A stretch of DNA of 64,000 nt from Patescibacteria group bacterium (GCA_036845805.1 DAIUDD010000002.1:129112-193111); one strand, 5' to 3'. Counted from the stretch's first letter, positions 6,560 to 23,404 are shown. The notes: generated by a model not told the origin, from the letters alone. Numbers and translations are program-made.

Positions 6560-6566
6560 CTATTTG

Positions 6567-6706
6567 GTTCGTTCGCGAGATTACATTAAGCCCTGATAAG
6601 ATAAAAAGTGCTGGAAAACGTGTGCCAAATCAAAGCCACTCCTCTTTGATTTTGGCTATCCCCGCGTTTTCTTACGGTTGCTTATCAGGGCTTTTTTATT
6701 TTTTAC
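6567..6706 (+). ncRNA. Candidate small structured RNA (unclassified), about 130 nt, ending in an intrinsic terminator
   Basis: Closing 12-bp helix AGCCCTGATAAG (6590-6601) / CTTATCAGGGCT (6681-6692) followed by TTTTTTATTTTTT. Nested helices inside (CCAAATCAAAG/CTTTGATTTTGG; GGAAAACG/CGTTTTC). No ORF. Confidence 0.3.
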
Positions 6707-6798
6707 ACTTGACTTTTAAATTTAAAATATTAAAATCAGATTAAACATCAAAATTTAAAATTAAAAAAATTCTGCTAAGCCAAAGCGAGGAGGTAAAA

Positions 6799-7128: not shown

Positions 7129-7132
7129 AATT

Positions 7133-7170
7133 AAAAATCCTCCGTTTGAAGCGGAGGATTTTATTTTACT
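7133..7170. terminator. Bidirectional rho-independent terminator (AATCCTCCG-TTTGA-AGCGGAGGATT + T-run)
   Basis: 9-bp GC-rich stem flanked by T/A runs; lies between convergent genes. Confidence 0.6.
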
Positions 7171-7197
7171 CATCATTTATATTTACTGCCGAATTAT

Positions 7198-8835
7198 CTA
7201 ATTATTGTCGCTTGTCTCTTGTTGCTTGTTGCTAATTATTAAATATTTCTGCGCTTCTTTTTTGTTTTTAATTTTACCCAATAATTGCGCTTCGCGAAGC
7301 TTTTCTTTAAGTTCACCGACTCTTTTTCCTGACGAGATTTTAAGCAGGTGCATAATCTCAGTGCCATCAATCAGAGGTTTGGGCAGAGCATTTAATCTTT
7401 GCTTTTCTTTTAACAACGCTCTCATACTTTTAATTCTTTTCAAAAGCGCGCCAATTAAATCAAATTCTAATTTGCCAGTTTGGGGAATAGTGGCCAAAGA
7501 ATCAAGATAAGCTAATTTGATTAAATTTAAACCTGAATAATTTTCGGAAAAAAAATATTTTTCAATAGTGGTTGGCCGAAATTCCGAAGGATGGCCATGA
7601 ATTAACATCATGTGTTTTCGAACCAACCAAGAAACATTGTCAGGACTAATGCCATATTTCTCCGGGGCAGAAAAAGTTAATCGTTCACAAATATTCTTGG
7701 CCAAATCAGCGCCGACGTTGTCATGTTCATAAAATCTAATGCGTTCAACCTTGTCTTTGGCTGGCGTTTCAATGGTATAGGGTTTGCCGAGGTCGTGAAA
7801 AATAATTGCAAAGACTAATTCGAGTCTTTGTTTAATAAAATCTTTTCCTGGTTGCTTGTCGCTTATTACTAATAACTTTTCCACTTTCTTCTCAAATATT
7901 CTAAATTGCGGACTATTTATTTTATTAAGTGCTAATTTTGTATGCTGCCAAACATCGCCTTCAGAATGAAAATTTTTTGGCTGGGGGCATTTTTTCATTT
8001 TTAAAATTTCCGGCATTAAAATTTTAAAAATTCCCAGCTGATCGCACAAATCAAGGGCGGAGACGGGCTGATAATAAAAAGCACGCAATAATTCTTTGGC
8101 AATGGTTTCCCGTGGTGCAATCCAGTCCCCTTTTTTATTTTTATCATTAAGGCGCGGGGTTAATTTTTTAATCGCGATAAAAGTTTTTTTCTCAATTTTA
8201 AAATTCAACTGGCACGAAAGGCGCACGGCACGCAAAATTCTGGAATAATCTTCCCCAAATCTTTCGGCTGGCTTACCAACCGCTCGGATAGTTTTATTTT
8301 TCAGGTCATCAAGACCACAAAAAGGGTCAATTATTTTATCTGTCATCCTCGAGAAATCGAGGATCCCATCTTTATTAGCAATCAACACCGCCACAGCATT
8401 AATGGTAAAATCTCTTCTTAACAAATCTTCTTTCAGCGCTAATTTTTTATCAAATTTAACTTTAAAATCTTTATAACCGCCGGTGTTAAAAGAAAATTCT
8501 GTGCGCGGCAGGGCAATATCAAGCGGTTCAAAATTATTATCATTAATAAATTTCTTGGGCTTAAATTTCAAAACGCCAAAATTCCGACCAAGTTTTTCCA
8601 CCCAGCCAAGACGGCCTAAAAATTCTTCTAACTTTTTCATGGGGACATGACGAACCACAAAATCAAAATCCTTATTGTCTTTGACACCAAGCAAAGCATC
8701 GCGGACCGCGCCACCAACTAAATAAACTTCGGCCTGGGGAAATTCTTTAACTAACTTCTTTGACCAATCTAAAACCGCGCCCTTTTCCAGGGTTTGCAGA
8801 AATTTATTTAAATTGGACTCATGAGTTTTATTCAT
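7198..8835 (-). CDS. cca: CCA-adding tRNA nucleotidyltransferase / poly(A) polymerase family with HD domain
   Basis: Pol-beta NTase motif 'LVGGAVRDALLGVKDNKDFDFVV', 'RDFTINA', and C-terminal HD region ('IFHDLGKP'). Start set at MNKTHES (8835); the longer ORF-track start reads through a palindromic repeat. Confidence 0.8.
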   Translation of the reverse strand: MNKTHESNLNKFLQTLEKGAVLDWSKKLVKEFPQAEVYLVGGAVRDALLGVKDNKDFDFVVRHVPMKKLEEFLGRLGWVEKLGRNFGVLKFKPKKFINDNNFEPLDIALPRTEFSFNTGGYKDFKVKFDKKLALKEDLLRRDFTINAVAVLIANKDGILDFSRMTDKIIDPFCGLDDLKNKTIRAVGKPAERFGEDYSRILRAVRLSCQLNFKIEKKTFIAIKKLTPRLNDKNKKGDWIAPRETIAKELLRAFYYQPVSALDLCDQLGIFKILMPEILKMKKCPQPKNFHSEGDVWQHTKLALNKINSPQFRIFEKKVEKLLVISDKQPGKDFIKQRLELVFAIIFHDLGKPYTIETPAKDKVERIRFYEHDNVGADLAKNICERLTFSAPEKYGISPDNVSWLVRKHMMLIHGHPSEFRPTTIEKYFFSENYSGLNLIKLAYLDSLATIPQTGKLEFDLIGALLKRIKSMRALLKEKQRLNALPKPLIDGTEIMHLLKISSGKRVGELKEKLREAQLLGKIKNKKEAQKYLIISNKQQETSDNN

Positions 8836-9073
8836 GCTCTGTTTTATTTTGTCGTCCCGAACTCCCGCCCGCCTCGCAAGCGAGAGCGTTGCGGGCAGGT
8901 GTTTCAGGATCTCTATAATAAAAAAATTATTCTTTGTAAAAAGATGCTGAAATAAATTCAGCATGACAAAAAACATTACTATTATAATAAATTCATTTTA
9001 CCTCTAAAAATCAATTTTTTCAAGCAAACAAAAAATTACCATCTCTGATAATTTTTTGTTTTATAATTTAAAA

Positions 9074-9586
9074 TTACTTAATTGCTAATAATTCCACTTC
9101 AAAAATCAAAGTGGCTTTGGCTGGAATAGCACCGGGGATACCCTCTTCGCCATAAGCTAAATTATAGGGAATGGTTAATTTTCTTTTTTCACCAACTTTC
9201 ATGCCAGAAACCCCCTGATCCCAACCAGCAATCACCCGGCCAGCACCTAGCGGAAATTCAAATGGCGCGCCACGATCAAGACTAGAATCAAATTTAGTGC
9301 CATCAGTCAACCAGCCGGTATAATGAACCACGGCAATCTCGCCAGCCATAATTTGTCTATCACCGGTGCCCACATTTAATGTTTCAATTTGTAATTCCAT
9401 ATTATTATTTATTTTTTCTGGTTCTTTGGGTGTAGTCTCTGCCAACTGGTTCTCTTCTTTGGTTAAAACATTTTCTGTAGTCGGATTAGAAATATCGGCA
9501 ACATCGGGCTTGATAAAAACCAAATAAACAGCCAGAATGACAATTATTAATATGACTAATAAGGCAATGCTTTCGCGCGTATTCAT
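9074..9586 (-). CDS. FKBP-type peptidyl-prolyl cis-trans isomerase, membrane-anchored
   Basis: N-terminal TM then FKBP domain ('[55 protein letters not shown]...[12 protein letters not shown]'). Confidence 0.8.
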
Positions 9587-9628
9587 AAATATAAAAAACA
9601 AATTTTATATTAAAAAATATTTTTCAAT

Positions 9629-9672
9629 TGCCTGGGGGCAGAACCCCGATGGACATCGGGGCGCAAGGATAC
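9629..9672 (-). pseudogene. Degenerate 3' fragment of tRNA-Phe (duplicate of anticodon-stem-to-3'-end region, T-stem replaced by a CCCCGATG..CATCGGGG hairpin)
   Basis: 27-nt identical repeat 'atatttttcaattgcctgggggcagaa' at 9611-9637 and 9697-9723; reverse complement reads ...ATCCTTGCG[CCCCGATGTCCATCGGGG]TTCTGCCCCCAGGCA. Confidence 0.5.
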
Positions 9673-9710
9673 ATTCCACAACGGGTTTTGATATTAAAAT
9701 ATTTTTCAAT

Positions 9711-9782
9711 TGCCTGGGGGCAGAATCGGACTGCCGACGCAAGGATTTTCAGTCCTTCGCTCTACCACTGAGCTACCCAGGC
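9711..9782 (-). tRNA. tRNA-Phe (GAA)
   Basis: GCCTGGG-TA-GCTC..GAGC-AAGGA-CTGAAAA-TCCTT-..-GGCAG-TCCGATT-CTGCC-CCCAGGC-A. Anticodon GAA. Confidence 0.8.
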
Positions 9783-9789
9783 ATTAATT

Positions 9790-9830
9790 TGGGCATGGAT
9801 GGATTTGAACCATCGACATTCACCTTATAC
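9790..9830 (-). pseudogene. tRNA 3'-half fragment (Ile-like; anticodon loop to acceptor 3' strand CATGCCCA)
   Basis: Reverse complement TATAAGGTGAATGTCGATGGTTCAAATCCATCCATGCCCA parallels the 3' half of the adjacent intact tRNA-Ile. Confidence 0.45.
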
Positions 9831-9876
9831 TAAATATAATTACTGCGTTCGCAAAAAATATAAATGTCAAGACAAT

Positions 9877-9952
9877 TGGTGGGCACGGGTGGATTTGAAC
9901 CACCGACATCCACCTTATAAGGGTGGCGCTCTAACCGCTGAGCTACGTGCCC
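9877..9952 (-). tRNA. tRNA-Ile (TAT), CCA encoded
   Basis: GGGCACG-TA-GCTC..GAGC-G-CCACC-CTTATAA-GGTGG-..-GGTGG-TTCAAAT-CCACC-CGTGCCC-A-CCA. Anticodon read as UAU. Confidence 0.6.
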
Positions 9953-9990
9953 AGTGGTTTTAACATTTACATTTTATTGCTCTCTGGTAA

Positions 9991-10074
9991 TTATAAGGGT
10001 GGCGCTCTAACCCGCCCGCCTCGCAAGCGAGAGCGTTGCGGGCAGGCCGCTCGACTACATGCCCTTTATTATAA
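9991..10074 (-). pseudogene. tRNA 5'-half fragment (acceptor GGGCATG + D-arm + anticodon stem/loop) with a 35-nt GC-rich palindromic element inserted in the D-loop
   Basis: Reverse complement GGGCATGTAGTCGAGCGG[CCTGCCCGCAACGCTCTCGCTTGCGAGGCGGGCGG]GTTAGAGCGCCACCCTTATAA. The 5' acceptor GGGCATG is exactly complementary to the 3' fragment at 9790-9830 (CATGCCC). Confidence 0.45.
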
Positions 10075-10167
10075 ATATAATAACAAATTTGATCAAGCAT
10101 TTCAACTCTTGCCAAAATTTTATAAATGTATTATTATTAAAACATTAATTTTAAAATTTATAACTCT

Positions 10168-10431
10168 ATGCCTCAAATGAAAGCAGCTGAAAAAGCTTTA
10201 AGACAAACTAAAAAAAGAACGGTCAAAAACGACCAGATAAGAAAAAATTTGGATTATTTGCTGCGAAGTTTTAAAAAAGCAATTAATATTAAAGATGGCC
10301 AAAAGAGTCAAGAAATTGCCAAACAACTCGCCAAAGCCCTGGATAAAGCCGCACAAAAAAGAGTGATTAAAAAAAATAATGCGGCGAGAAAAAAATCTCG
10401 GCTAATGAAGAAAGTAAAGGTAATAAAATAA
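10168..10431 (+). CDS. rpsT: 30S ribosomal protein S20
   Basis: 87-aa basic protein 'MPQMKAAEKALRQTKKRTVKNDQIRKNL...KALDKAAQKRVIKKNNAARKKSRL' matching the S20 pattern. Terminator hairpin CCCCGC..GCGGGG+T-run at 10443-10476. Confidence 0.8.
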   Translation: MPQMKAAEKALRQTKKRTVKNDQIRKNLDYLLRSFKKAINIKDGQKSQEIAKQLAKALDKAAQKRVIKKNNAARKKSRLMKKVKVIK

Positions 10432-10519
10432 CAAATTTCCTACCCCGCCCTTCACGAAGAGCGGGGTTTTGGTTTTTTAAAAAAAATGTTAAGATAAAAT
10501 AAACTAATCAAATAAACAT

Positions 10520-11020
10520 ATGCTCGAAGAACAAAATAACCAACACGTTCGTCCATCTTGGGATGAATATTTTATGAAATTAGCCCAAATGGTTGGTGAA
10601 CGCGGAACTTGTGACCGTGGTCGAGCTGGTTCAGTAGCAGTTAAAGATAAAAGAATTATGGCCACTGGCTATGTCGGTTCACCACCAGGGATGCCACACT
10701 GCGATGAAGCTGGCCACATTATTCATGAAGTGATCAATGATGATGGTACGGTTTCTAAACATTGCGTGCGTACTATTCATTCAGAACAAAACATCATCTG
10801 TCAGGCTGCTAAGTATGGTATTTCCTTAGATGGCTGCACTATTTATACTAAAATGGAACCCTGTTATGTTTGTGCGCGCATGTTGGTAGCAGTGGGCATA
10901 AAAAGAGTGGTGTGCCAAAAAAGATATCATGGCGCCAAATTAACACGTGAACTTTTTGAAAAAGCTGGTATAAAACTTGATGTTTTAGAAGATGAGTTAG
11001 AAACTTATAAAGACATGTAA
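10520..11020 (+). CDS. dCMP deaminase (cytidine/deoxycytidylate deaminase zinc-binding family)
   Basis: Zinc motifs 'HSEQNIICQAAKYG' (HxE) and 'PCYVCARML' (PCxxC). Confidence 0.85.
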   Translation: MLEEQNNQHVRPSWDEYFMKLAQMVGERGTCDRGRAGSVAVKDKRIMATGYVGSPPGMPHCDEAGHIIHEVINDDGTVSKHCVRTIHSEQNIICQAAKYGISLDGCTIYTKMEPCYVCARMLVAVGIKRVVCQKRYHGAKLTRELFEKAGIKLDVLEDELETYKDM

Positions 11021-11022
11021 AT

Positions 11023-11604
11023 ATGAATAACAAAATCGTCTGCATAACCGGACTTTGTGGTTCGGGAAAAAGTGAGGTAGCAGAATTTTTTGTAAGGGCG
11101 GGTTATGCTTATATTAGGTTTGGTCAAATTGTATTGGATGAAATAAAAAAAAGAGGCTTAGAACCAAATGAAGCAAACGAAAGACCAATTAGAGAAAGTT
11201 TTAGAAAACAATATGGAATGGCGGCTTTTGCAATTTTGAACCAACCCAAAATTGATAATTTTTTAGAAGAAGGTAAAAATGTTTTAGCTGACGGTCTTTA
11301 TAGTTGGTCTGAATACAAAGAATTAAAAAATAAATATAACAATAATCTGATAGTTATTGCAGTATATGCCTCTCCTAAAACACGTTATGCTAGATTAGAG
11401 GATAGAAGAAATCGCTATGACAATGACCCTAATTTAAAATATCGTTCATTTTCCAAAAAAGAAGCCAAGGATCGTGATTATGCCGAAATAGAAAATATTG
11501 AAAAGGCAGGACCAATTGCGATGGCCGATTTTACTATTATTAATGAAGGAACTTTGGTAGATTTACATGCACAAATAGAAAAAATTTTAGAAAAAATATG
11601 TTAA
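11023..11604 (+). CDS. P-loop nucleotide kinase (dephospho-CoA kinase / dNMP kinase-like)
   Basis: Walker A 'GLCGSGKS' at the N-terminus; about 190 aa; overlaps stop/start with flanking nucleotide-metabolism genes. Confidence 0.55.
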   Translation: MNNKIVCITGLCGSGKSEVAEFFVRAGYAYIRFGQIVLDEIKKRGLEPNEANERPIRESFRKQYGMAAFAILNQPKIDNFLEEGKNVLADGLYSWSEYKELKNKYNNNLIVIAVYASPKTRYARLEDRRNRYDNDPNLKYRSFSKKEAKDRDYAEIENIEKAGPIAMADFTIINEGTLVDLHAQIEKILEKIC

Positions 11605-12218
11605 AAAATATTATTTTTGATTGGTCCGGAACAATAAGTGATAATACAAAAAAAGTTTATTTAACAGCTATGGCTATTTTTAAAAAGTTTGGTGTGAAAA
11701 AAATAAGCTTTAAAGATTTTAGAAAAAATTTTAAATTACCAGTGATGCTTTTCTATAACCAATATATTCCTAATCTTTCTTTGAGTGAAGAAAAAAAAAT
11801 TTATGCCGAAGAGTACGCTAAATTAAAAAAATCTACCCCTTATAAAAGTATCGATAAAATTATAAAAAATTTAGCCAAACGCGACCTTAATTTGGTGGTT
11901 ATAAGCACAGATCCGCCAGCACAACTAAAAAAAGAAATTAAAAAATTTGATTTAGAAAATGTTTTTATGGATATTGAATCTGGAGTTCACGATAAATATT
12001 CGACTCTGAAAAAAAATATTAAGAAAAATAAATTTAGATTATCAGAAACCATATTTATTGCTGATACTAAATGGGAAATAGAAATTGGAAATAAAATTGG
12101 GATAAAAACTGGAGGAGTTACTTGGGGCATAGGCACGCTTAAAGAGATATCTGAAGCTAAACCAACTTATCTTATTAATAATATCGCAAAATTTAAAAAA
12201 ATTTTTAATGAAACTTAA
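11598..12218 (+). CDS. HAD-superfamily hydrolase (putative nucleotidase/phosphatase)
   Basis: N-terminal motif I-like 'IIFDWSGTISD', later 'VVISTDPP' and 'IADTKWEIEIGNKIG' (motif III/IV-like). Confidence 0.55.
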   Translation: MLKNIIFDWSGTISDNTKKVYLTAMAIFKKFGVKKISFKDFRKNFKLPVMLFYNQYIPNLSLSEEKKIYAEEYAKLKKSTPYKSIDKIIKNLAKRDLNLVVISTDPPAQLKKEIKKFDLENVFMDIESGVHDKYSTLKKNIKKNKFRLSETIFIADTKWEIEIGNKIGIKTGGVTWGIGTLKEISEAKPTYLINNIAKFKKIFNET

Positions 12219-12630
12219 ATTTAAAAAAATATATTCAGATGCGATGGTGCCGACCTATGGCCGGGCGGGTGACGCGGGTATGGATTTGTATTCTTACGAA
12301 GATAAAGAACTTTTACCCGGTGAACGTTATACTTTTAAAACTGGCGTGGCGGTAGAAATTCCGGAAAATTTTGTGATGGTCTTTTGGGATCGTTCAGGCT
12401 TGGCAGTCAAACACGGATTAACGGTTTTAGCGGGCGTAATTGATTCTAATTTCCGCGGAGAAATGGGGGTTTGTGTTTTAAATACTTCTAATGAAGAATA
12501 TCAAATTAAAAAAGGAGATCGCATTGCCCAATTTTTGGTTCAGCCGGTTGAAAAAATAGAATTGGAAGAGGCGGATGAGTTGTCAGAAACAAATCGTGGG
12601 GAAAAGTGGCAGGCGTCGAGTGGGTATTAA
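12208..12630 (+). CDS. dut: dUTP diphosphatase
   Basis: dUTPase motifs 'RAGDAGMDLYS', 'GLAVKHGL', 'GVIDSNFRGEMGV'. Confidence 0.9.
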   Translation: MKLKFKKIYSDAMVPTYGRAGDAGMDLYSYEDKELLPGERYTFKTGVAVEIPENFVMVFWDRSGLAVKHGLTVLAGVIDSNFRGEMGVCVLNTSNEEYQIKKGDRIAQFLVQPVEKIELEEADELSETNRGEKWQASSGY

Positions 12631-12654
12631 TATGTTTAAAATTATCAGATGCCA

Positions 12655-12682
12655 AAAAACACTTTTTAAAAAGTGTTTTTTG
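12655..12682. terminator. Perfect 28-bp palindrome (AAAAAACACTTTTT|AAAAAGTGTTTTTT); bidirectional terminator between convergent genes
   Basis: Exact inverted repeat with flanking A/T runs on both strands. Confidence 0.65.
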
Positions 12683-12705
12683 ATTATCAATTTCTATTTC
12701 TAAAA

Positions 12706-13317
12706 TTAAAGTTCTTTTCTGGGTAAAAGAATAATAAAAATGCCACAAAAAAAAGAAAGCCCGGCCATAATCATAAAAATCAAACCAAAGCCATAACTGG
12801 CCACCAACCAACCACCAATAGCCGAGCCAATCGCAGGAATAAAATAGGCTAAACCATCATAAATTCCCCATTGCCAAGTGGCTTTTTTACCATCAGTGTG
12901 TTTAGCAAAAACAGAATGAAAAGCTGGCCAATAAAGCGCTTCGGCCATGCCCAAAACAATCATATCAAGATAAAGCATGGCTACATTATCGGTCAAATAT
13001 AACATTATATAACCGAGACCAATCACAAACTGGGACCAAGCAATGGCCAATTCGGTTTCTTTCATTTTATTTTCATAACGACTGAATAAAAAAGTTAAAA
13101 GACCAGCTACCACGCCAAAGATAGCCCAAGAATTTGCCGCCACTTCAATACCGCCGCCAACCTGCTCGACAAAAATGGCGTAAATTGGAGAGAACATGGC
13201 AAAAGCAAACATAAAAATTCCACTAATAAACAAAAGGTATTTTAAAGCGTCATTAATTAAATTGTTTTTGGAATTAATATTTTTCCTTTGTTCGTGACTG
13301 TGGTGTGGTAAATTCAT
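12706..13317 (-). CDS. Integral membrane protein, 6 TM (MFS-like half transporter?)
   Basis: 203 aa with 6 predicted TM helices; weak MFS-like features; no confident family. Confidence 0.4.
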   Translation of the reverse strand: MNLPHHSHEQRKNINSKNNLINDALKYLLFISGIFMFAFAMFSPIYAIFVEQVGGGIEVAANSWAIFGVVAGLLTFLFSRYENKMKETELAIAWSQFVIGLGYIMLYLTDNVAMLYLDMIVLGMAEALYWPAFHSVFAKHTDGKKATWQWGIYDGLAYFIPAIGSAIGGWLVASYGFGLIFMIMAGLSFFCGIFIILLPRKEL

Positions 13318-13449
13318 AAATTTTTTATTTTTATTTAATTAATATTTAATATTATATCATTTTTTAAGACACTTGCCAAAATCTATAGGCGTGATAAGGT
13401 AATAAAGGAAAAGAAATGTATCTAAAAAAAATAAAAGTGAGGAGGAAAA

Positions 13450-14439: not shown

Positions 14440-14501
14440 ATAACATAAAAGCTCCTGCCAGAGACGGGAGCTTTTTTATTTTTAGAAAAATTTTTTATCT
14501 A

Positions 14502-15236
14502 TTAAAATATTTTTCCTTTTTGCCAATCAAGTTCGGCCTGCTGCAATCGCTCTACAGTACCGATATCTTGCCAATAATAATCATCAACTTCAAAAACATT
14601 AATTAATTTTCCTTGGGCAACCAGATTTAGATATAAATCAACACTACTAAATTTGTTTTCTTGGGGCATTAAGGAAAAAATTTTTGGCGAGACAAGATGA
14701 ATACCCAAAAAACCAACTTCTTTTGGTGTCCCAGTAAAATTTTTTGCCACTATTCTTTTGAGGTTATTTTTCTTATCAAAATGTCCGATTAAGCGGCCGC
14801 CTGGAGCTACTAAAAACGGGCGGGAAGTGATTCGATTATTAACTAATAAAGTGGCCAAAGCCGAGCTGCTTTTTTGAAATTCCAAAGCTGGCAATAAATT
14901 AATATTAGTTAAAATATCAGCATTAAAGATAATAAAAGGGTTTGAATCTTTTAAAAAAAATTGGGCGTTTTTAATAGCGCCGCCAGTATCCAAAAGCTCA
15001 TGTTCAAAAAATGTCTGACAAATATTTAAATCCTTTTTTTGGGTTAAAAAATCAGTAATTTGATTAGCTAAATAATGACTATTAACAGCAATTTCCTTGA
15101 CACCGTTTTTTCTTAAATAAAAAATAGCTCGCTCCAAGAGAGTTAAATCACCCACTTTAAGCAGCGCTTTGGGGGTAGTAATGGTTAATGGTTGCAAACG
15201 AGTACCAAGTCCGGCCGCTAAAATCAAAGCTTTCAT
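14502..15236 (-). CDS. Sugar-1-phosphate nucleotidyltransferase (MurU / N-acetylmuramate-1-P uridylyltransferase-like)
   Basis: NTP-transferase signature 'LILAAGLGTRLQPLTITTPKALL'; 244 aa; 4-nt overlap with the upstream AmgK-like kinase gene. Confidence 0.7.
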   Translation of the reverse strand: MKALILAAGLGTRLQPLTITTPKALLKVGDLTLLERAIFYLRKNGVKEIAVNSHYLANQITDFLTQKKDLNICQTFFEHELLDTGGAIKNAQFFLKDSNPFIIFNADILTNINLLPALEFQKSSSALATLLVNNRITSRPFLVAPGGRLIGHFDKKNNLKRIVAKNFTGTPKEVGFLGIHLVSPKIFSLMPQENKFSSVDLYLNLVAQGKLINVFEVDDYYWQDIGTVERLQQAELDWQKGKIF

Positions 15237-16666
15237 AAATTATTTTTTAAAGAAAGATGTTGAACCTTAACCTTAATACCTTTTTCTTTTAGATAGCTGG
15301 CTAACTTTTCGGCGCAATAAACGGAACGGTGGGCGCCGCCAGTACAACCAAAAGAAACCATCAAATCAGTATAGCCCCTGGTTTGATAACTATTGATGGA
15401 GAGATCAATAAGCTCATAGACATGATTTAAAAAATTTTGCACTCTTTCTTTGGCGTCGAGATAGTTTTTAACTGCTTCATCCAATCCGGTTAATTTTTCT
15501 AAATCTTTTTCCCAAAAAGGATTAACCAGACCGCGACAATCAAAAACAAAGCCGCCATTATTTTCTGTTTCATCAATTGGTCGGTCTGATTTTTTAAAAC
15601 CAAAACTAAAAATTCTAACCAAAAAATCTCTATTTTCCGGCATGGCCTGGTCCCAAGAATTTAGTTGGCAAATTTTAGCAATAATCTCTTTCAAGCTGGG
15701 CATGTTGGTTAAGAAAGAAAGTTTTCTTTCGATTAAATTTAGATTTTCAATAGCCAAAGGAATGCTTTTTAAAAAATGTGGCTTGTTTTTAACTAAACCC
15801 AAAAAACCATAAGCGCCCAAAGCTTGCATAATTCTAATCAAGACAAAACCATAGAAATATTTTTTAAACTTTTCTTGGTCAACACTTTTTATTTTATTAA
15901 CTTCGGATAAATAATAATCTAATAATTCGGCCCTAATCTCTTCGGGAATTTTAGCTTTAGCATCATAAAGCAAAGAAGCCAGATCATATTGCAAGGCCCC
16001 CCGTCGACCAGATTGATAATCGATAAAATAAGGTGTCCCATTTTTTAACATAATATTGCGAGACTGAAAATCACGATAAACAAAAAAATCTTTTTCTGCT
16101 TCTAACAAAAAACCGGCTAATTTGTTAAAGTCTTCTTCTAGGCGTTCATTATCAATTTCTTCCTTATAAAAAAGGTTTAAAAAATTCCATTTAAAATAGT
16201 GCATGTCCCAAAGCATCGATTCGTGGGCAAACTCAATATGTTGATAACAAAGACCATAATTAATGTGTTGGCCAGCAGTAATTTGAATAAGTGGTAAAAT
16301 CGCTAAAATTTCTTTATACTTGGCAATTATTTCTGAATCAAATTCTTGTTTCTCTTGTCTTTTTTTTTCTAACCAAGTAAATAAAGTTTCGTCACCCAAA
16401 TCTTCTTCTAAATAAACATGGCGTTCTAAGTCGACTAAATAAATTTGTGGCACATTAATTTTATGAGCGAAAAAAGTCTCAGAAAAAGAAATAAAGGCCT
16501 CATTTTCTTTGCGATTTTTACCATAAACCCCAATGGCTGTTTGACCATTGCCGACTAACCGATAGAGTGTGCGATCCGAACCGTCACCTTTTAAATTTTT
16601 AATTTCGGTGCTCGCTACTCCAAAATATTCCTGAAACATTTTTTTTAACAATTCTTGCTCAGACAT
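15233..16666 (-). CDS. Fusion protein: AmgK-like anomeric MurNAc/GlcNAc kinase (APH fold) N-terminal + RapZ/YvcJ C-terminal domain
   Basis: N-terminal residues 1-340 show APH/Brenner motifs 'YRDFQSRNIML...YFIDYQSG' as in AmgK. The C-terminal ~135 aa 'FGFKKSDRPIDETENNGGFVFDCRGLVNPFWEKDLEKLTGLDEAVKNYLDAKERVQNFLNHVYELIDLSINSYQTRGYTDLMVSFGCTGGAHRSVYCAEKLASYLKEKGIKV' align closely with the E. coli RapZ C-terminal domain (..[20 protein letters not shown]..). Confidence 0.75.
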   Translation of the reverse strand: MSEQELLKKMFQEYFGVASTEIKNLKGDGSDRTLYRLVGNGQTAIGVYGKNRKENEAFISFSETFFAHKINVPQIYLVDLERHVYLEEDLGDETLFTWLEKKRQEKQEFDSEIIAKYKEILAILPLIQITAGQHINYGLCYQHIEFAHESMLWDMHYFKWNFLNLFYKEEIDNERLEEDFNKLAGFLLEAEKDFFVYRDFQSRNIMLKNGTPYFIDYQSGRRGALQYDLASLLYDAKAKIPEEIRAELLDYYLSEVNKIKSVDQEKFKKYFYGFVLIRIMQALGAYGFLGLVKNKPHFLKSIPLAIENLNLIERKLSFLTNMPSLKEIIAKICQLNSWDQAMPENRDFLVRIFSFGFKKSDRPIDETENNGGFVFDCRGLVNPFWEKDLEKLTGLDEAVKNYLDAKERVQNFLNHVYELIDLSINSYQTRGYTDLMVSFGCTGGAHRSVYCAEKLASYLKEKGIKVKVQHLSLKNNL

Positions 16667-16670
16667 AATT

Positions 16671-17777
16671 TTAATTTAAAATCGCCGTTAAATATTTTTC
16701 ACCAGTATAATCCACAAAAATTTTATTAATTTGTTCCCCCAATTCTTTTTGTGATTGTTCATCAACTAATAAATTTTTAATCTGGGCCACCAATTTTTCG
16801 CTTGTTAATTCTTTTTGTGATAAATAAAGAGCGGATTTTTTCTCTGCAAAATACTTGGCATTTTCCTCTTGGTGCGAATCGGGAATCGGAATAATAATAG
16901 TTGGTTTTTTAAAATAGGCCAGTTCGGTTAAAGTGGACATGCCAGCACGAGAAATGACCAGGGTTGCCTTAGAATAAACCACGGCCAGCTGATCTGCATT
17001 TAAAAATGTAAATTGCTGATAATTTTCTCTGGCATTTTGGCGCTGGATACCTGCCTTGCCGGCAGGCAGGCTTTGACACTTGTTTTTACCAGTCAGGTGA
17101 ATGATATTACAAAACTTAGTCAATTTCTCTAATGACTGCCAAACTAATTCATTAAGGAACAAAGCACCAGTGCCACCGCCAAGAACGAGAACTATTGGTA
17201 AATTATTATTAAAATGAACAAACATTTTTTCTCTTAATTTCTCTATTTCTTTATTTCTTAATTTCTCTCTAACTGGATTACCAACTAAAACAGCTTTTTC
17301 TTTTTTAAAATCATCCAAAGATTTTTCTAAGGCCACGGTTATTTTTTTGGCAAACGGAGCCATTAATTTATTAGCCAGGCCCACCCGCACATCTTGCTGA
17401 TGCACAAAAATTGGCACTCTTAAAAACCAGCCAGCCCACGCCACAGGCACAGCCACAAAAGAGCCGGCAGTTAAAATTAAATCTGGCTTAAATTTTTTAA
17501 TAATAAAAAAAGCTTGCCAAAAGCCAACTTTAATTTTAAAAAAATCAAATAAATTTTTAAAAGAAAAATAACGGCGAAATTTACCGCCGACAATGGATTT
17601 AAAATTAATGCCTTCACTCTCAACCACTTGGCGCTCTGGGCCAAACCTGGTGCCTAACCATAAGGCTTCGTCACTCGGCACTTTGGCACTTTGACGCTTT
17701 GACACTAATTTCTGATGGGTGGCAATAAGCGGACTAACCGAACCCAAAGTGCCGCCACCGCTATAAAGAATTTTCAT
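16671..17777 (-). CDS. murG: UDP-GlcNAc:MurNAc-(pentapeptide)-PP-undecaprenol GlcNAc transferase
   Basis: GT28 features: N-terminal 'ILYSGGGTLGSVSPL', C-terminal 'VLVLGGGTGALFLNELV'; 368 aa. Confidence 0.8.
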   Translation of the reverse strand: MKILYSGGGTLGSVSPLIATHQKLVSKRQSAKVPSDEALWLGTRFGPERQVVESEGINFKSIVGGKFRRYFSFKNLFDFFKIKVGFWQAFFIIKKFKPDLILTAGSFVAVPVAWAGWFLRVPIFVHQQDVRVGLANKLMAPFAKKITVALEKSLDDFKKEKAVLVGNPVREKLRNKEIEKLREKMFVHFNNNLPIVLVLGGGTGALFLNELVWQSLEKLTKFCNIIHLTGKNKCQSLPAGKAGIQRQNARENYQQFTFLNADQLAVVYSKATLVISRAGMSTLTELAYFKKPTIIIPIPDSHQEENAKYFAEKKSALYLSQKELTSEKLVAQIKNLLVDEQSQKELGEQINKIFVDYTGEKYLTAILN

Positions 17778-17790
17778 AGGATAAATAATT

Positions 17791-17865
17791 TGGTAGCCCG
17801 TAGGAGAATCGAACTCCTGTTACTAGGATGAGAACCTAGCGTCCTAGCCGCTAGACGAACGGGCC
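17791..17865 (-). tRNA. tRNA-Glu (CTC), CCA encoded
   Basis: GGCCCGT-TC-GTCT..GGAC-G-CTAGG-TTCTCAT-CCTAG-TAAC-AGGAG-TTCGATT-CTCCT-ACGGGCT-A-CCA. Anticodon CTC. Confidence 0.65.
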
Positions 17866-17893: not shown

Positions 17894-18610
17894 TTAAAGA
17901 TGGTGCTTTTGTTTAATTATTTTTTTAGCTAATTCATATTCTTTAACTTTTTTTAACCAAGTCAGGCGATAAAAAAATTTAGGCAGCCAAGAACTCATGG
18001 TACCATGACTTTTAGATTGCCACAAGAGTTCGGGTAGAAAAATTCCTGTTTCATGGTGGGCTAAAAGAGCCAGCCATAAATCCCAATCTTGAAATTTTTT
18101 TAATGATTCATCCCAAGGGATATTGGGAAAAGATAATTTTTCCAAAGCCCGGCGGCGAATTAAAGACATGGTGGAAATGTAATTATTTTGTTTTAATTTT
18201 TCTTGGTCAAAGGGAAAAAGTTTAAAAGTTTTCCAACCAAATTTAAAAGATGAGTATGAGTAGGCTTTATCTAGGTTATTTTCTAAAACATTAAGCATTT
18301 TTTCTAAAGCATTATTTTTTAAAAAAATTACATCGCTATCACAGAAAAAAATATACTCTCCAGTTGATTTTTGCCAGCCAAAATTTCTGGCTTTGGCTGC
18401 ACCAGAATGATCAATAAAATATTTCTGTAATTTTAATCCTTTAATTTCTAAATTTCTCAATTTCTCAATTTCTTTACTCCCATCATCAACCACGATTATC
18501 TCTATTTCATCTTTATACAATTCAAAAATTGTCTGCGGTTTTAAATTGTTTAGCAGTTTGGTTAAATTTTTTTCATTATTATAAACAGGAATAATAATAG
18601 ATAACAACAT
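17894..18610 (-). CDS. Glycosyltransferase family 2
   Basis: 'LSIIIPVYNNEKNL...IEIIVVDDGS' with DxD 'CDSD'. ATG start at 18610 preferred over the ORF-track TTG start at 18628. Confidence 0.75.
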   Translation of the reverse strand: MLLSIIIPVYNNEKNLTKLLNNLKPQTIFELYKDEIEIIVVDDGSKEIEKLRNLEIKGLKLQKYFIDHSGAAKARNFGWQKSTGEYIFFCDSDVIFLKNNALEKMLNVLENNLDKAYSYSSFKFGWKTFKLFPFDQEKLKQNNYISTMSLIRRRALEKLSFPNIPWDESLKKFQDWDLWLALLAHHETGIFLPELLWQSKSHGTMSSWLPKFFYRLTWLKKVKEYELAKKIIKQKHHL

Positions 18611-18656
18611 AAAAATAGCGCTTGACAATTTTAGAAAGATAAATTAAAATAAAAAG

Positions 18657-18912
18657 CACCAAAAAAATAAAGTTGGGAAGGAGGCATCATTGGTTTTGGT
18701 AAACCAAATTTACCGCGGAAATGATGTTGGTTCAAAAGAGACTTTTGTGCGAGTGGTTAGTCACCACGAGCATAAAAACGAAGTCCAGTATCATTTCTGT
18801 GATCAAAACGGCAGAGCTAAAACCGGGCTCGTAAGCCGGACGACGGAGAGTTTTTTATCTCTTTTTAGACTGGCTTAAAAACACCACAGACGATGAACGC
18901 ATGTTTGTCGTC
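18657..18912 (+). ncRNA. Candidate structured non-coding RNA (about 250 nt, unclassified) with its own promoter and intrinsic terminator
   Basis: TTGACA (18623-18628)-N16-TAAAAT on the plus strand between two minus-strand genes. Nested helices (GGCATCATTGG..GGTAAA/TTTACC..CCAACATCATTTCC; CCGG-GCTCGTAAG-CCGG; GGAGAG-TTTTTTAT-CTCTTT). Terminator GACGA..TCGTC+TTTTTTATT at about 18878-18912. The in-frame 62-aa TTG ORF looks non-protein-like. Confidence 0.3.
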
Positions 18913-18916
18913 TTTT

Positions 18917-20131
18917 TTATTTTTCTAAAACTTTTATTATATTGTCAACTAAATCATCAATATTTTCTGGATTAACAAAATTTGCTTTAAAATAATTCTG
19001 TAAAGATTCTTTAATGCCGCCAACATCCGAGGTAATAATTGGTAAATTAAATTCTTGGGCCTCTAAAAAAACCACGCCAAAACTTTCAGTATCTGTTGAA
19101 GGCGAGGTTCCGGAACCTCGCCTTCGAGGAGTCATAATAAACGCGTCGGCCAACTCATAATAATTAGGCAAATCTTGGTGTGGCACAGAACCAGCAAAAA
19201 TTACCCTATCGACACTTTTTATTTGAAAAGTGCCAGCCACATCATCCCCTCCTTTCGAAGGAGGGGCCTCTCGGCGATTAGCCGGAGGGGGAGGTAATAA
19301 TTCGTTGGCAATTTTAATTAATCTGTTTTTATCTGGGCCATCGCCAATAATTAGATAAACCAAATCTGGAATTTTCTGCCAAACTTTTGGCAAAGATTCA
19401 AGCACCCGATCAATACCTTTAGATTCTACCAAGCGCGCCACAGTTAATAAAACTTTTTTGTTAGCTAAATTATATTTTTCTTTTAATTCTGCTACTTTCT
19501 GTGGATCAACCATTTCTTTTTTTAATGTATTAACTGGATAAACAATTCTTATTTTTTCCGGCTGAACTTTAAAATCATTGATTAAAATATTTTTAGTAAA
19601 TTCAGTGTTGGCCTCAACAAATTCGGCGTCCTTCAAGATTTTCTTAGCTAACAAAAATTTGCGTTTATTCTTTTTGGCACGAAGCAAATCATTACCGTGG
19701 CAGGTGACAAAGTAAATTATGTCATTCCCGCCCCGCAAAATGCGGGGGGAATCCCCTTGAACTACGAGATCCTCACTTTTGTGAGGATGACAATGAGAAA
19801 ATAAATTCATTATTTTACAGATTAACCAAACCGCTGTGCCCACTGGCAAAATTTGCCCTGCCCATAAACGTTTAATTTTTTCTTTTTTTGCTATTTTATA
19901 AATGTGCCAAACTAAAGGCAGCCAGTGGGGCCAGATAAAACGCCAAAAAAAATGCTTATAAATTAATTTAAAATCATAAATCTTAAATCGTAAATCATAA
20001 ATCTCTGATTTATTCATCAAAACAACCACTGTCTTACCGGTATCAACCACCTGTCTGACTCTTTGCCTATAATAATTGGCAATGCCACCGATTAGGGGCG
20101 GAAAATCCATGGTAATTAAAAGCGTTTTCAT
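18917..20131 (-). CDS. Glycosyltransferase family 4 (GT-B) carrying multiple in-frame palindromic-repeat insertions
   Basis: C-terminal GT4 core 'VIFAGSVPHQDLPNYYELADAFIMTP...ESFGVVFLEAQEFNLPIITSDVGGIKE'. Segments 'PPPPANRREAPPSKGGD', 'RRRGSGTSPSTDT', 'CHPHKSEDL' and 'GDSPRILRGG' are encoded by hairpin repeats (see findings). Confidence 0.75.
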   Translation of the reverse strand: MKTLLITMDFPPLIGGIANYYRQRVRQVVDTGKTVVVLMNKSEIYDLRFKIYDFKLIYKHFFWRFIWPHWLPLVWHIYKIAKKEKIKRLWAGQILPVGTAVWLICKIMNLFSHCHPHKSEDLVVQGDSPRILRGGNDIIYFVTCHGNDLLRAKKNKRKFLLAKKILKDAEFVEANTEFTKNILINDFKVQPEKIRIVYPVNTLKKEMVDPQKVAELKEKYNLANKKVLLTVARLVESKGIDRVLESLPKVWQKIPDLVYLIIGDGPDKNRLIKIANELLPPPPANRREAPPSKGGDDVAGTFQIKSVDRVIFAGSVPHQDLPNYYELADAFIMTPRRRGSGTSPSTDTESFGVVFLEAQEFNLPIITSDVGGIKESLQNYFKANFVNPENIDDLVDNIIKVLEK

Positions 20132-20205
20132 GGCTTAATTTTATTAAATTTAAGCCGAAAAAGCAAATTAAAAACAGGCGCTAAACCTGTTTAATAAATA
20201 AGCAA

Positions 20206-21672
20206 TTATAATGACTTTTTAATTCTTAAAGACAATAAAATGTCATTTAATTCCTGGCGGGTAAAAAAACCAAATAAAAACAAGGCCAAAAAATAAACTA
20301 AGGCGCCTAAAATAATTAGATATATAAAATGAATTTTAAACAATAAGAGCCATAAAACGAAAACCATAATAATGCCGGCAAGCAAGCTTTGTAAAAAACT
20401 GGTTAATAAATATTTTTTATTATATTTTAAAATTTTGTTAGTGGCATAAATTCCTAAAACAAAAAGCACGACAGTGCTCACTAATGAGGAAATGGCGCCA
20501 CCAACATAAGTTAAGCGCGGAATTAAAAAAATATTTAAAAGAGTGTTAACCGCCACAGCCACACCAATTTGCTTGGTGTTTTGCAGCTGTTTAGAGCAGG
20601 CATTTAAAAGCGAGCCAATGGGAAAAGTTAAAAATAAAAAGATGAGCGAGCCGGCTAAAATCTGCAGTGGCAAAATGGCGCCATAATATTCGCGGCCAAA
20701 AATTTGGGGCACAAAATCCGGCGCTAAAATTAAAAGCCCGCCGGCAATGGGCGCGCTAATGAACATTAAATAGCGCATGGCTTTTTCAAAAGTACGCGCT
20801 AACTTTTCCTGGTCAGTGGCAAAAAATTCTGACAAGGCTGGGAAAAGAGCGGCCACAAAAGCCAGGGGCAAAAAATGAATGGCTAAAATTATTTTTGTCG
20901 CGACCGAATAGATGCCGACATTGGCATCGCAAATAGCTTGGGTAGCGCAACCAATTTTGGATAAAAAAATCGTATCAATTTGGGTATTAAGGCGCGCTAA
21001 AATTCCGGTCAAAGCAAAAGGCCAGGCAATAATTAAAAGTTTTTTGGCTAAAGAACGATCAATTTGTATAGTCGGAATAAGATGAGTGCGCCGGCGCATT
21101 TCCCAATAACTAAAAAAACACAAAAAAGAGCTGCCCATCAAAACAGCCAAAACCTGCACCACCACCCCCAAATCTAGGATTAACAAAATTGCGCCGACAA
21201 TAATTACTAATGATTCAAAAAAAACAATCCCCGCGCTTTCATATTTTAAATTTTGGTGGCCACGAAGCACACCCCAAAAAGTATTGGAAAAAGTATCAAG
21301 GAGCATAATAACACCGGTCAAATAAACCAAATTTTTGGTAATTTCCGGATAGTCCATGAGATTAATTAAAATCACAACGAATAAATAGACAAATAAACTT
21401 AAAAATAATTTTATACCAAGCACGTTGGCGAGAATTTCTTTGGTCCGGCTCCGATCTTTGGCAATCTCACGGGTTAAAACAGAATTCAAACCGACATCAA
21501 CAAAAACACTAAAAATAGTGGTGAACGAAAAAGCAAAAGTATAACGACCCAAATCTTCCACGCCTAAACCGCGCGCTAAAAAAGTAAAATAAACAAAAGC
21601 CAAGACTTTTTGAAATACTAAAGCTAAAGTATAATAAGTGGTGTTTTGAGTTAAGGTTTTAGCTTGGACCAT
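20206..21672 (-). CDS. Polysaccharide biosynthesis/export flippase (MOP superfamily, Wzx/MurJ-like), about 14 TM
   Basis: 488 aa, highly hydrophobic; N-terminus 'YYTLALVFQKVLAFVYFTFLARGLGVEDLGRYTFAFS' typical of Wzx/PST family. Confidence 0.7.
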   Translation of the reverse strand: MVQAKTLTQNTTYYTLALVFQKVLAFVYFTFLARGLGVEDLGRYTFAFSFTTIFSVFVDVGLNSVLTREIAKDRSRTKEILANVLGIKLFLSLFVYLFVVILINLMDYPEITKNLVYLTGVIMLLDTFSNTFWGVLRGHQNLKYESAGIVFFESLVIIVGAILLILDLGVVVQVLAVLMGSSFLCFFSYWEMRRRTHLIPTIQIDRSLAKKLLIIAWPFALTGILARLNTQIDTIFLSKIGCATQAICDANVGIYSVATKIILAIHFLPLAFVAALFPALSEFFATDQEKLARTFEKAMRYLMFISAPIAGGLLILAPDFVPQIFGREYYGAILPLQILAGSLIFLFLTFPIGSLLNACSKQLQNTKQIGVAVAVNTLLNIFLIPRLTYVGGAISSLVSTVVLFVLGIYATNKILKYNKKYLLTSFLQSLLAGIIMVFVLWLLLFKIHFIYLIILGALVYFLALFLFGFFTRQELNDILLSLRIKKSL

Positions 21673-21910: not shown

Positions 21911-22495
21911 CTATTTGATTTTGTAACTGCCCGCAACAAGAAACATTGGAGCGTTGTCGCGGATGTTATATGTTGATGAAACTTCAATCACGGCTGGCCC
22001 CGCCGGGATTGAGTATTTCATATATGGGAGATTCATCGGCTTCTCTCGCAAATAATGCAGAAGAGAATAGCCGAGGCCTAATTTACCAACCGAGACATCA
22101 ACGGCTTGGTAACCAAAGCCAAAATTGATGTCCCAGCCGGGGTGCTGCGGCCGACCAAAGAAAATTCCGTTCCAGCTTGTGAAGCTTAGGAATTTCCACG
22201 GGCTGAAAACCGCAATCGGCGCTACCCACATGGCGTTGTTCTGCTGGCCAAAAGTCGGGCCGCAGAAAAAACTACCATGCTTTTTCATCAACACCACCTG
22301 GCCCAGAGTGGCGTTGACTTCAAGAGAGAGCAGGTCACCATGGGCATTGGCCATGGTGCCGATGGCACCAACTCCGGACGAGAGCGCACTCTCTCCAGAG
22401 TAGATCTTCGCCTCGGCGAGGCGAAAACCTTGGGCCAACACAGCCCCGGCCAAAAACACAACAGCCAGAACAAAAACCAACAAAAACTTTTTCAT
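21911..22495 (-). CDS. Secreted hypothetical protein (signal peptide; beta-rich, OmpW/PagL-like size)
   Basis: N-terminal 'MKKFLLVFVLAVVFLAGAVLAQG' signal peptide; alternating hydrophobic pattern; local GC clearly above window average. Confidence 0.45.
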   Translation of the reverse strand: MKKFLLVFVLAVVFLAGAVLAQGFRLAEAKIYSGESALSSGVGAIGTMANAHGDLLSLEVNATLGQVVLMKKHGSFFCGPTFGQQNNAMWVAPIAVFSPWKFLSFTSWNGIFFGRPQHPGWDINFGFGYQAVDVSVGKLGLGYSLLHYLREKPMNLPYMKYSIPAGPAVIEVSSTYNIRDNAPMFLVAGSYKIK

Positions 22496-22528: not shown

Positions 22529-23404
22529 TTAAAATTGCTGCTGGAATAAAATTCCCCAGCCGTTTTGATTGTTGCTCGCTAACTTAAACAAATTAAAGCG
22601 AACAACAGTCTTTGAACTGGGAGAAAAATTAACCCCAGCGCTCCAGCCATTGGTTGTTTTGTCACCAACTTTAAGCGACTCAACTAAACCAACCAGCTGA
22701 AAATATTTGTTTAGATCAAACGTTGACATGATCCAGCGGCCGATCTTTTGACCGTTGTAGTCAATATTGTTTTGCCCTCCATTGATCCAAAACATTTTAT
22801 ACTTCCACGTTAGGTCGCCGCCCAAAATTTGGCGATAACCATCAGGCTGCTGACCAGACCAACAAATCACTCCTGGTGTAAAACCAAAAGATAAATTGTA
22901 GGTCGCGCGACCAGTAAAATCCAAGGACTTATTATCGTCCTTGAATTTAGATGTGCCATTGGTCACGCCGACCATGGCCCAAATTCCCTTCCAATTTTCC
23001 TGCGCGAATACACCTAAGCCATATGGGTGGCTAAACAAAGCAACAGGATAATTAAGAATGGGTAAATTATGCGGCCCTGGAAATTGATATGAAATCGGAT
23101 CCAGGGTTCTTCCGACAATCAGCTTCGGCATCCACTCCTTTGGAAACTGAAAATTAATTTGAGCAAAGCCAAGTTCTGGCTTGCCCTCTTTGTCAAAGTC
23201 GGTATAGGTAACATAACCGACTTTAATATTTTTAATTCCAATTTCCACTGGTCCGGTAAGTATTACTCGAACCTTAGGAATGGAAAATCCACTGGAATCG
23301 GCCTTGATCTGGCCAAAACCAGACACAGTGGCTCCGTTTTCACCAGCAATAAGCTGGCTAACCAGAACCAAAATAACCACGATGCTAAAGAAAAAATTTT
23401 TCAT
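22529..23404 (-). CDS. Secreted hypothetical protein with outer-membrane beta-barrel-like features (C-terminal ...GWGILFQQQF)
   Basis: Signal peptide 'MKNFFFSIVVILVLVSQLIAG'; 291 aa rich in G/Y/W/F/N with alternating pattern and a terminal Phe; GC-rich relative to surroundings. Confidence 0.45.
   Translation of the reverse strand: MKNFFFSIVVILVLVSQLIAGENGATVSGFGQIKADSSGFSIPKVRVILTGPVEIGIKNIKVGYVTYTDFDKEGKPELGFAQINFQFPKEWMPKLIVGRTLDPISYQFPGPHNLPILNYPVALFSHPYGLGVFAQENWKGIWAMVGVTNGTSKFKDDNKSLDFTGRATYNLSFGFTPGVICWSGQQPDGYRQILGGDLTWKYKMFWINGGQNNIDYNGQKIGRWIMSTFDLNKYFQLVGLVESLKVGDKTTNGWSAGVNFSPSSKTVVRFNLFKLASNNQNGWGILFQQQF

Follow-up and report, generated by a model that had tools for sequence, protein, structure and literature searches.

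A 64,000-nucleotide stretch of DNA from a Patescibacteria group bacterium (GCA_036845805.1 DAIUDD010000002.1:129112-193111), hereafter called the window, carries on its minus strand a gene (positions 15233-16666) whose 477-aa product joins an AmgK-like kinase of the APH fold to RapZ's C-terminal domain (RapZ_C). The next gene encodes a MurU-like sugar-1-phosphate nucleotidyltransferase of 244 aa (14502-15236, minus strand). We show that this two-domain architecture is conserved in a large family, that the module order kinase, RapZ_C, nucleotidyltransferase is constant whether the modules are encoded by three genes, by two genes (as in the window) or by one gene, and that RapZ_C retains its phosphate-binding loop. 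We consider it probable, with a rough probability of 0.6, that the unit salvages an amino sugar to its UDP form and that RapZ_C acts in it as a phosphosugar-binding accessory or regulatory module.

The conserved unit was defined by gene order. In a scan with one genome per species, at least 596 species loci of the kinase-RapZ_C family were found, and the best 80 of these were compared. In 70 of them, the fusion gene is directly followed, on its own strand, by a gene for a MurU-like homologue; two of the other ten loci end too early for judging. Clustering of the open reading frames (ORFs) over the 80 loci revealed no neighbour conserved across phyla besides the nucleotidyltransferase. Seven representative proteins of 714-816 aa (P0312, P0283, P0293, P0323, P0346, P0390 and P0330) are triple fusions of APH, RapZ_C and NTP_transferase domains, and one of them, P0312, was confirmed to be encoded by one uninterrupted ORF (contig L087, 4001-6145). 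About a dozen representatives (319-356 aa) consist of the kinase only and stop exactly at the linker. In three of the four kinase-only loci that were looked up (L085, 4001-6185; L088, 4001-6164; L090, 1552-3726), the gene for a kinase of 337-344 aa is followed by one for a stand-alone RapZ_C protein (134-137 aa) and then by an NTP-transferase gene, the genes overlapping or lying 14 nt apart. One example of this split form comes from a 2.4-Mb contig and another from independent samples. The stand-alone RapZ_C proteins, of which that of L085 is encoded at 5050-5454, retain every invariant residue of the family, those of the phosphate loop included. Because the three modules occur as three, two or one gene in a fixed order, these results show RapZ_C to be no incidental tail but, in its own right, a functional partner of both enzymes. 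The initial annotation, made from the window sequence, had presented the fusion as the arrangement; the fusion is real, yet it is one of three forms, since separate genes and a triple fusion also exist. In a further representative (P0328, 718 aa), a 3′-5′ exonuclease domain of the DNA_pol_A type is fused ahead of kinase and RapZ_C.

The kinase-RapZ_C family is a large, unstudied family with two Pfam domains and not a rarity of the window genome. It comprises at least 8000 homologous clusters, of which the best 120 all contain both Pfam domains in about 475 aa. An exhaustive HMMER search of 1.84 billion cluster representatives returned 791 at E <= 1e-30 and 4280 at E <= 1e-10. A homologue search that started from a Bacteroidales member yielded environmental proteins only. 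The best 80 loci come from Acidobacteriota, Bacteroidota, Calditrichota, Ignavibacteria/Melioribacter, Elusimicrobia, Lentisphaeria, Deferribacteres and others, and include metagenome-assembled genomes (MAGs) labelled Methylomirabilota and Eremiobacterota; the closest homologues of the window protein are labelled Patescibacteria group. A frameshift or an assembly artefact joining two separate genes, a concern voiced in the initial annotation, was looked for and ruled out: the ORF is one uninterrupted 477-aa frame, the identical protein is recorded in NCBI, JGI, ENA and Logan, and the best 120 homologues share the same two-domain architecture. Public records name family members "phosphotransferase", "RapZ C-terminal domain-containing protein" or "RNase adapter RapZ", and the last label appears to be a mis-annotation of many kinase-RapZ_C records. 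In the literature searched, which included few subscription journals, no paper joins AmgK and RapZ and none describes RapZ_C joined to a kinase, and the three-module unit with a separable RapZ_C was not found there either. The individual domains are of known types, and the MurU pairing parallels an established pathway. The architecture was thus correctly described as uncharacterised, as far as this literature goes, but it is not rare, the family being very large and already present in databases with both Pfam domains.

The kinase domain (approximately residues 1-334; 15665-16666, minus strand) matches Pfam APH (PF01636) with its residues 25-253 (E 1e-8). Its best match among the NCBIfam kinase models is AmgK (NF045759; residues 1-317 against model positions 1-310 of 324, E 5e-18, 65.2 bits), in agreement with the earlier assignment of an N-terminal APH-fold domain nearest to AmgK. 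The NCBIfam matches of seven further fused proteins from several phyla were limited to the C half of RapZ and to the two AmgK models, the latter with 35-71 bits. The catalytic loop R198-D199-F-Q-S-R-N204, a Brenner-type motif (16055-16075, minus strand), and the metal-binding D216-Y-Q, equivalent to the DFG motif (16013-16021, minus strand), are invariant in the family: Y-R-D199-F-Q-S-R-N204 and I-D216-Y-Q were found unchanged in sets of 39 and of 117 members. The motif HRDxxxxN...IDxQD, given initially, therefore holds for the catalytic residues (D199, N204 and D216) but not for the exact letters. A structural-genomics "aminoglycoside phosphotransferase", 3csv, is both the top Foldseek match of the kinase domain (TM-score 0.80) and its sequence match among solved structures (E 2.5e-15).

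In the downstream protein, Pfam NTP_transferase spans residues 2-238 of 244 (E 2e-21), and the length is that of a minimal sugar-1-phosphate nucleotidyltransferase (about 225-245 aa). MurU (NF045761) ranks top among 35 NCBIfam families with 119.5 bits. The closest solved relative is Pseudomonas putida MurU (4y7t; E 3e-19, full-length alignment), followed by the N-acetylmuramic acid (MurNAc)-1-phosphate uridylyltransferase 8hhd. As a relative of the 244-aa protein, MurU outranks mannose-1-phosphate, glucose-1-phosphate and phosphocholine transferases, and LicC is a weak match.

The C-terminal module (residues 346-474; 15245-15631, minus strand) belongs to the RapZ C-terminal domain family along its whole length, as the initial annotation had proposed. 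Pfam PF22740 covers residues 350-473 with model positions 3-120 of 121 (E 1e-35), and the E. coli RapZ C-terminal domain (CTD) entry 5o5s matches residues 346-474 (E 4e-22). The NCBIfam RapZ model is matched only at positions 155-276 of 278, scoring 116.7 bits where the cut-off is 244, and the N-terminal P-loop domain of RapZ with its Walker A and B motifs is absent, again as first stated. In the AlphaFold2 (AF2) model of the fusion protein (mean predicted local distance difference test score, pLDDT, 91; predicted template modelling score, pTM, 0.72), low confidence is confined to the linker at residues 343-345.

To compare the module with E. coli RapZ, we mapped the family onto that protein by sequence alignment, using 117 family members. 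The phosphate-binding loop G440-C-T-G-G-A-H446-R447-S448 (15323-15349, minus strand) corresponds to G246-S254 of E. coli RapZ. In the loop pattern G-C-T-G-G-x-H-R-S, all 117 members share the residues G, C, T, G, H, R and S, and 116 share the second G of the G-G pair. Its segment C441-T-G-G-A-H-R447-S448 forms a C-x5-R-S pattern between a strand (434-441) and a helix (447-461). The equivalents of D182 (D376), R184, N188 and P189 vary little or not at all. In E. coli RapZ, the pocket holds sulfate or malonate (PMC5737377), the CTD by itself binds glucosamine-6-phosphate (GlcN6P) with a dissociation constant (KD) of 10 nM, and D182 is required for CTD self-association (PMC7073468). Four of the five pocket residues H190, T248, G249, H252 and R253 are retained in the window protein (as T442, G443, H446 and R447), together with C441, equivalent to C247. 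The answer to whether the pocket persists, a question raised in the initial annotation, is accordingly mixed when judged by sequence alignment: these five residues are kept, and H190 is replaced by F384.

The features by which E. coli RapZ handles RNA are mostly lost. According to the cryo-EM structure that traced the RNA path, RapZ loop residues contact RNA phosphate (PMC9841335). K170 and R184, which lie on this path, are retained in the family, and K194, R196, R211, R238 and K251, as well as K270, are not conserved, the position of K270 being I or V. The window protein ends in ...LSLKNNL, without the basic C-terminal RNA-binding tail (K270, K281, R282 and K283). The RapZ pocket is widely conserved, whereas the RNA-binding tail is restricted to Enterobacteriaceae, and the small RNAs GlmY and GlmZ are likewise restricted to that family (PMC7073468).

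In the window, the fusion gene is the second of three closely packed genes. The first, murG (16671-17777, minus strand), encodes the lipid I : UDP-N-acetylglucosamine (UDP-GlcNAc) transferase; it scores 253.1 bits with TIGR01133 (equivalog cut-off, 250.25) and contains both Glyco_transf_28 domains, N (PF03033) and C (PF04101). The ATG of the fusion gene lies 4 nt past the murG stop codon, and the ATG of the MurU-like gene overlaps the fusion-gene stop codon in the sequence ATGA (15233-15236), which confirms the 4-nt overlap first reported and, with MurU as the best NCBIfam and PDB relative, the MurU-like character of the neighbour. A G+C-rich hairpin with T-runs (14447-14475), terminator-like, is located between the MurU-like gene and the convergent prs gene and is likely a two-way terminator closing the murG-kinase-murU run. 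Other minus-strand terminator-like matches, within murG and within the fusion gene, have only 5-6 pairs in their weak stems; 5 terminator-like matches were observed against 4.1 expected from shuffles. Because the sole convincing hairpin falls past the last gene and the spacing is almost nil, the three genes appear to share one transcript, and translation of the last two appears to be coupled. A tRNA-Glu(CTC) gene directly upstream of murG (17791-17865, minus strand) separates it from glycosyltransferase (GT) and flippase genes further upstream. These lie at 17894-21672 on the minus strand and comprise a GT2 gene, a GT1/GT4 gene and a gene for a Polysacc_synt/MurJ-like flippase; all three also stand ahead of the unit in two relatives (L081 and L083). 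In these relatives, a gene of the DNA_pol_B_exo/RNase_H_2 type stands just upstream of murG. No further mur genes were found elsewhere in the 64-kb window.

The wider neighbourhood links the unit to the cell wall. Relatives from the window's lineage that are 73% and 59% identical keep the order murG, fusion gene, nucleotidyltransferase gene, and one of these two has mreB after the unit. The relative at 59% identity has an additional ORF of 159 aa, matching neither Pfam nor NCBIfam, that separates the fusion gene from the nucleotidyltransferase gene (L083, 7483-7962; L084, 3288-3767). murG stands beside the fusion gene in three of three lineage relatives, compared with none of the 80 loci from other phyla. 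The adjacency of murG, part of the initial description, is thus real in the window and its relatives but not a general feature: it is specific to the Patescibacteria-like lineage of the window, and the conserved partner is the MurU-like gene. In 9-11 of the loci, murA (TIGR01072, 552 bits) and murQ (TIGR00274, 360 bits) are located divergently upstream of the unit (L020, L022, L028, L029, L032, L033, L045, L049, L068 and L079, at about 1500-13400 in each), and in 6-8 loci, largely the same ones, a 1010-aa protein with a GH3 (NagZ-like) part and a PBP4B-like part is encoded downstream. A MurA-like gene also lies directly upstream of the unit in a locus from another phylum (L008). Conserved gene order in many phyla, together with murG, murA, murQ and NagZ-like neighbours, bears out the link to cell-wall sugars suggested at the outset.

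We propose that the kinase domain would phosphorylate a free cell-wall amino sugar, MurNAc and/or N-acetylglucosamine (GlcNAc), at C1 using ATP, giving the alpha-1-phosphate, and that the MurU-like enzyme would convert this sugar-1-phosphate and UTP to the UDP-sugar. The UDP-sugar would then enter peptidoglycan synthesis, in keeping with the predicted co-transcription of the unit with murG in the window's lineage. RapZ_C may bind a phosphorylated amino sugar (GlcN6P, GlcNAc-6P, MurNAc-6P or a UDP-sugar) through the invariant loop and dimerise through the face containing D376, so that it would serve as an accessory or regulatory subunit tying salvage flux to the precursor pool, much like the small regulatory subunits encoded beside other biosynthetic enzymes. 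The sugar (MurNAc, GlcNAc or both) we infer from distant similarity, and the ligand of RapZ_C and the direction of regulation are likewise inferences. The conserved position of RapZ_C between a 1-kinase and a uridylyltransferase in many phyla provides guilt-by-association evidence for a role in cell-wall sugar-phosphate chemistry or sensing, not in RNA handling. RapZ/YvcJ proteins are conserved across bacteria, and the small stand-alone RapZ_C proteins with their two enzyme partners make the role of the C-terminal domain beyond Enterobacteriaceae testable. The unit also suggests that the AmgK/MurU shortcut, which matters for fosfomycin resistance and for labelling with MurNAc probes, has an extra component beyond Proteobacteria.

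Several observations weigh against this salvage model. The kinase scores 65.2 bits with NF045759 against an equivalog cut-off of 550 and 44.9 bits with the second AmgK model, NF045698, against 500, and the nucleotidyltransferase scores 119.5 bits with NF045761 against 250. Because these scores are far below the equivalog cut-offs, we file the two proteins only as AmgK-like and MurU-like in probable mechanism, without membership in either equivalog. LicA and other small-molecule kinases are among the Foldseek structural neighbours, and the pairing of an APH kinase with an NTP-transferase is also known for a non-sugar substrate, choline (LicA/LicC). The nucleotidyltransferase is not nearby in 8 of about 78 assessable loci, and the fourth kinase-only locus has neither RapZ_C nor a nucleotidyltransferase. 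The murA/murQ loci belong mostly to one related group of Acidobacteriota-type MAGs and so represent few independent events. At the position of H190, the window protein has F384 and 108 of the 117 members have G (mostly then R or K); because this E. coli pocket residue is not kept, the ligand of RapZ_C in the kinase-RapZ_C family may differ from GlcN6P. The mutual orientation of the kinase and RapZ_C domains is unreliable in the AF2 model, given its pTM. Finally, we found no published activity, ligand or structure for any member of the family.

The features of the phosphate loop also suit a catalytic role. RapZ_C could contribute the pathway's third enzyme activity: as a cysteine-dependent phosphosugar phosphatase or phosphotransferase, it would supply the 1-kinase with free sugar made from MurNAc-6P or GlcNAc-6P. 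We regard this as possible but doubtful. The unit as a whole would in that case convert a sugar-6-phosphate to the UDP-sugar, with RapZ_C in the role of the Pseudomonas phosphatase MupP. A C-x5-R-S pattern on a strand-loop-helix is the signature of Cys-phosphatase P-loops, and in RapZ_C the pattern is invariant and set in this very context. Moreover, sulfate, malonate or phosphate is held in E. coli RapZ by the loop backbone and its Arg (PMC5737377), C247S unexpectedly inactivates the protein, and a CTD crystal grown with GlcN6P contained a "chemically transformed product" in the pocket; the authors proposed a "specialised catalytic function" (PMC9841335). RapZ_C can be encoded separately, between two enzyme genes, or form part of a triple fusion, a pattern common among consecutive enzymes, and murQ, whose product uses MurNAc-6P, is a neighbour in some loci. 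However, small regulatory subunits are also encoded beside their enzymes, so that the gene pattern is not decisive, and no general-acid residue was identified. RapZ_C showed no overall fold or profile similarity to cysteine phosphatases of the protein tyrosine phosphatase (PTP), low-molecular-weight PTP (LMW-PTP) or ArsC type; in the profile comparison with ArsC and LMW-PTP sequences, only 13-22 loop columns aligned, with a probability of about 1%. We advance with the same caution the broader idea that amino-sugar salvage is the root function of RapZ_C, as an enzyme or an obligate subunit that acts on a sugar phosphate via the Cys-x5-Arg-Ser loop, and that the enterobacterial RNA-adaptor role was a late add-on. 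If this were so, ancestral catalysis would account for both the C247S phenotype and the "transformed" GlcN6P density of E. coli RapZ.

Three further explanations bear on what RapZ_C binds and what the enzymes act upon. Conservation of D182 as the invariant D376, a residue needed for CTD self-association in E. coli, and the placement of RapZ_C between kinase and nucleotidyltransferase in every form would suit a pure oligomerisation scaffold, which dimerises the kinase and docks the nucleotidyltransferase for hand-over of the sugar-1-phosphate with no metabolite bound; that proteobacterial AmgK, of about 38 kDa, functions without RapZ_C (PMC11957156) is also compatible with this. We nevertheless judge it unlikely, because conservation is strictest in the phosphate loop and not at the interface, and a scaffold would not need invariant Cys, His, Arg and Ser residues in an anion pocket. 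Slightly less likely again is that the enzyme pair activates another substrate for envelope decoration, such as another hexosamine, a heptose or a non-sugar alcohol, for example choline. The remoteness of the AmgK and MurU similarities, LicA and others among the structural neighbours, the weak LicC match of the nucleotidyltransferase and the position of the window run just downstream of GT1, GT2 and polysaccharide flippase genes all leave room for it; yet the best curated and solved relatives are AmgK-type proteins and MurU rather than LicA and LicC, the informative neighbours are all peptidoglycan genes (murG, murA, murQ, the NagZ/PBP4B-like gene and mreB), and the fused domain derives from a binder of amino-sugar phosphates. 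Very improbable, in our view, is that the fusion protein is an RNase adapter RapZ that presents a small RNA to a ribonuclease, as automatic NCBI names and the retention of K170 and R184 might suggest. We rejected this reading: the RapZ model is matched in its C half only, the P-loop N-domain, which is needed for the GlmZ-presenting tetramer, is missing along with the basic tail, and most RNA-path residues are lost. GlmY, GlmZ and the tail are limited to Enterobacteriaceae (PMC7073468), and in the window no GlmY/GlmZ-type RNA was detected, and RNase Y is encoded but no RNase E was shown. The reading that we prefer is still the one in which an amino sugar is salvaged and RapZ_C binds a phosphosugar.

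The window contains several other features. A tight four-gene run on the plus strand (10520-12630) encodes a dCMP/cytidine deaminase, an AAA_18-type small kinase, an HAD_2 hydrolase and a dUTPase, and probably functions in nucleotide salvage; its HAD_2 hydrolase, which is weakly PpaX/phosphoglycolate-phosphatase-like and so resembles the family of MupP, is the sole MupP-like candidate seen in the window. A half-size major facilitator superfamily (MFS) gene (12706-13317, minus strand; 203 aa) matches only the first half of the MFS_1 model; given a 191-aa counterpart at the same place in a relative (L083), it is probably genuine at this length rather than truncated. A tRNA-Ile gene with the anticodon TAT, an uncommon bacterial isoacceptor, is located at 9877-9952 (minus strand), and a transfer-messenger RNA (tmRNA) gene, detected by Rfam (105 bits) and missed by ARAGORN, directly follows infC (46440-46838, minus strand). 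Two T4SS_pilin (PF18895) proteins are encoded at 33124-35132 (plus strand) and 53774-54397 (minus strand), one of them beside a T2SSE-type secretion ATPase. Six ORFs of 191-492 aa (21911-22495, 22529-23404, 49771-51249, 51859-52434, 52422-53708 and 60340-61725) match no Pfam family at E <= 1e-4. The source genome is AT-rich, on a contig of 722 kb; the G+C content of positions 52001-54000 is 0.445, compared with about 0.36 in the rest of the window.

Among known systems, the closest parallel is the AmgK/MurU route, in which MurNAc is converted to MurNAc-alpha-1-phosphate and then to UDP-MurNAc, bypassing MurA and MurB. It has been shown in Pseudomonas putida/aeruginosa, Legionella, Caulobacter and Tannerella forsythia, whose AmgK has served in labelling studies, with homologues noted in "Bacteroides sp.". 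In both cases, the gene for an APH-fold kinase is directly followed by that for a small NTP-transferase, and the context is peptidoglycan; however, the window proteins are only remotely similar, with 65 and 119.5 bits where the cut-offs are 550 and 250, characterised AmgK has a single domain and a size of about 38 kDa (PMC11957156), and the kinase-RapZ_C family adds RapZ_C and occurs mostly in non-proteobacterial taxa. MupP, the Pseudomonas HAD-type MurNAc-6-phosphate phosphatase, is a third component of that route, the role that RapZ_C would play if it were catalytic, but it has the unrelated HAD fold and is encoded apart from amgK-murU. LicA and LicC (choline kinase and CTP:phosphocholine cytidylyltransferase) likewise pair an APH-fold kinase with an NTP_transferase-fold enzyme; they differ by weaker similarity than AmgK and MurU, by the lack of RapZ_C and by another genomic context.

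E. coli RapZ (YhbJ; 5O5O, 5O5S and 8B0I), the GlcN6P sensor and GlmZ/RNase E adaptor, differs from the window protein in that the latter has neither the P-loop N-domain nor the basic tail, has lost most RNA-path residues and has H190 replaced. The partner of the C-terminal domain is a kinase-like P-loop domain in E. coli RapZ, whereas in the window protein it is an active-looking sugar kinase. B. subtilis YvcJ and M. tuberculosis Rv1421 also combine RapZ_C with a partner domain for a cell-wall nucleotide or amino sugar: the N-domain binds UDP-GlcNAc (PMC7525490, PMC11229554). By contrast, their N-domain is a P-loop NTPase with no known sugar-kinase activity, and their partner is GlmR/YvcK, which was not seen in the window, where RapZ_C is joined to an AmgK-like kinase and followed by a MurU-like enzyme.

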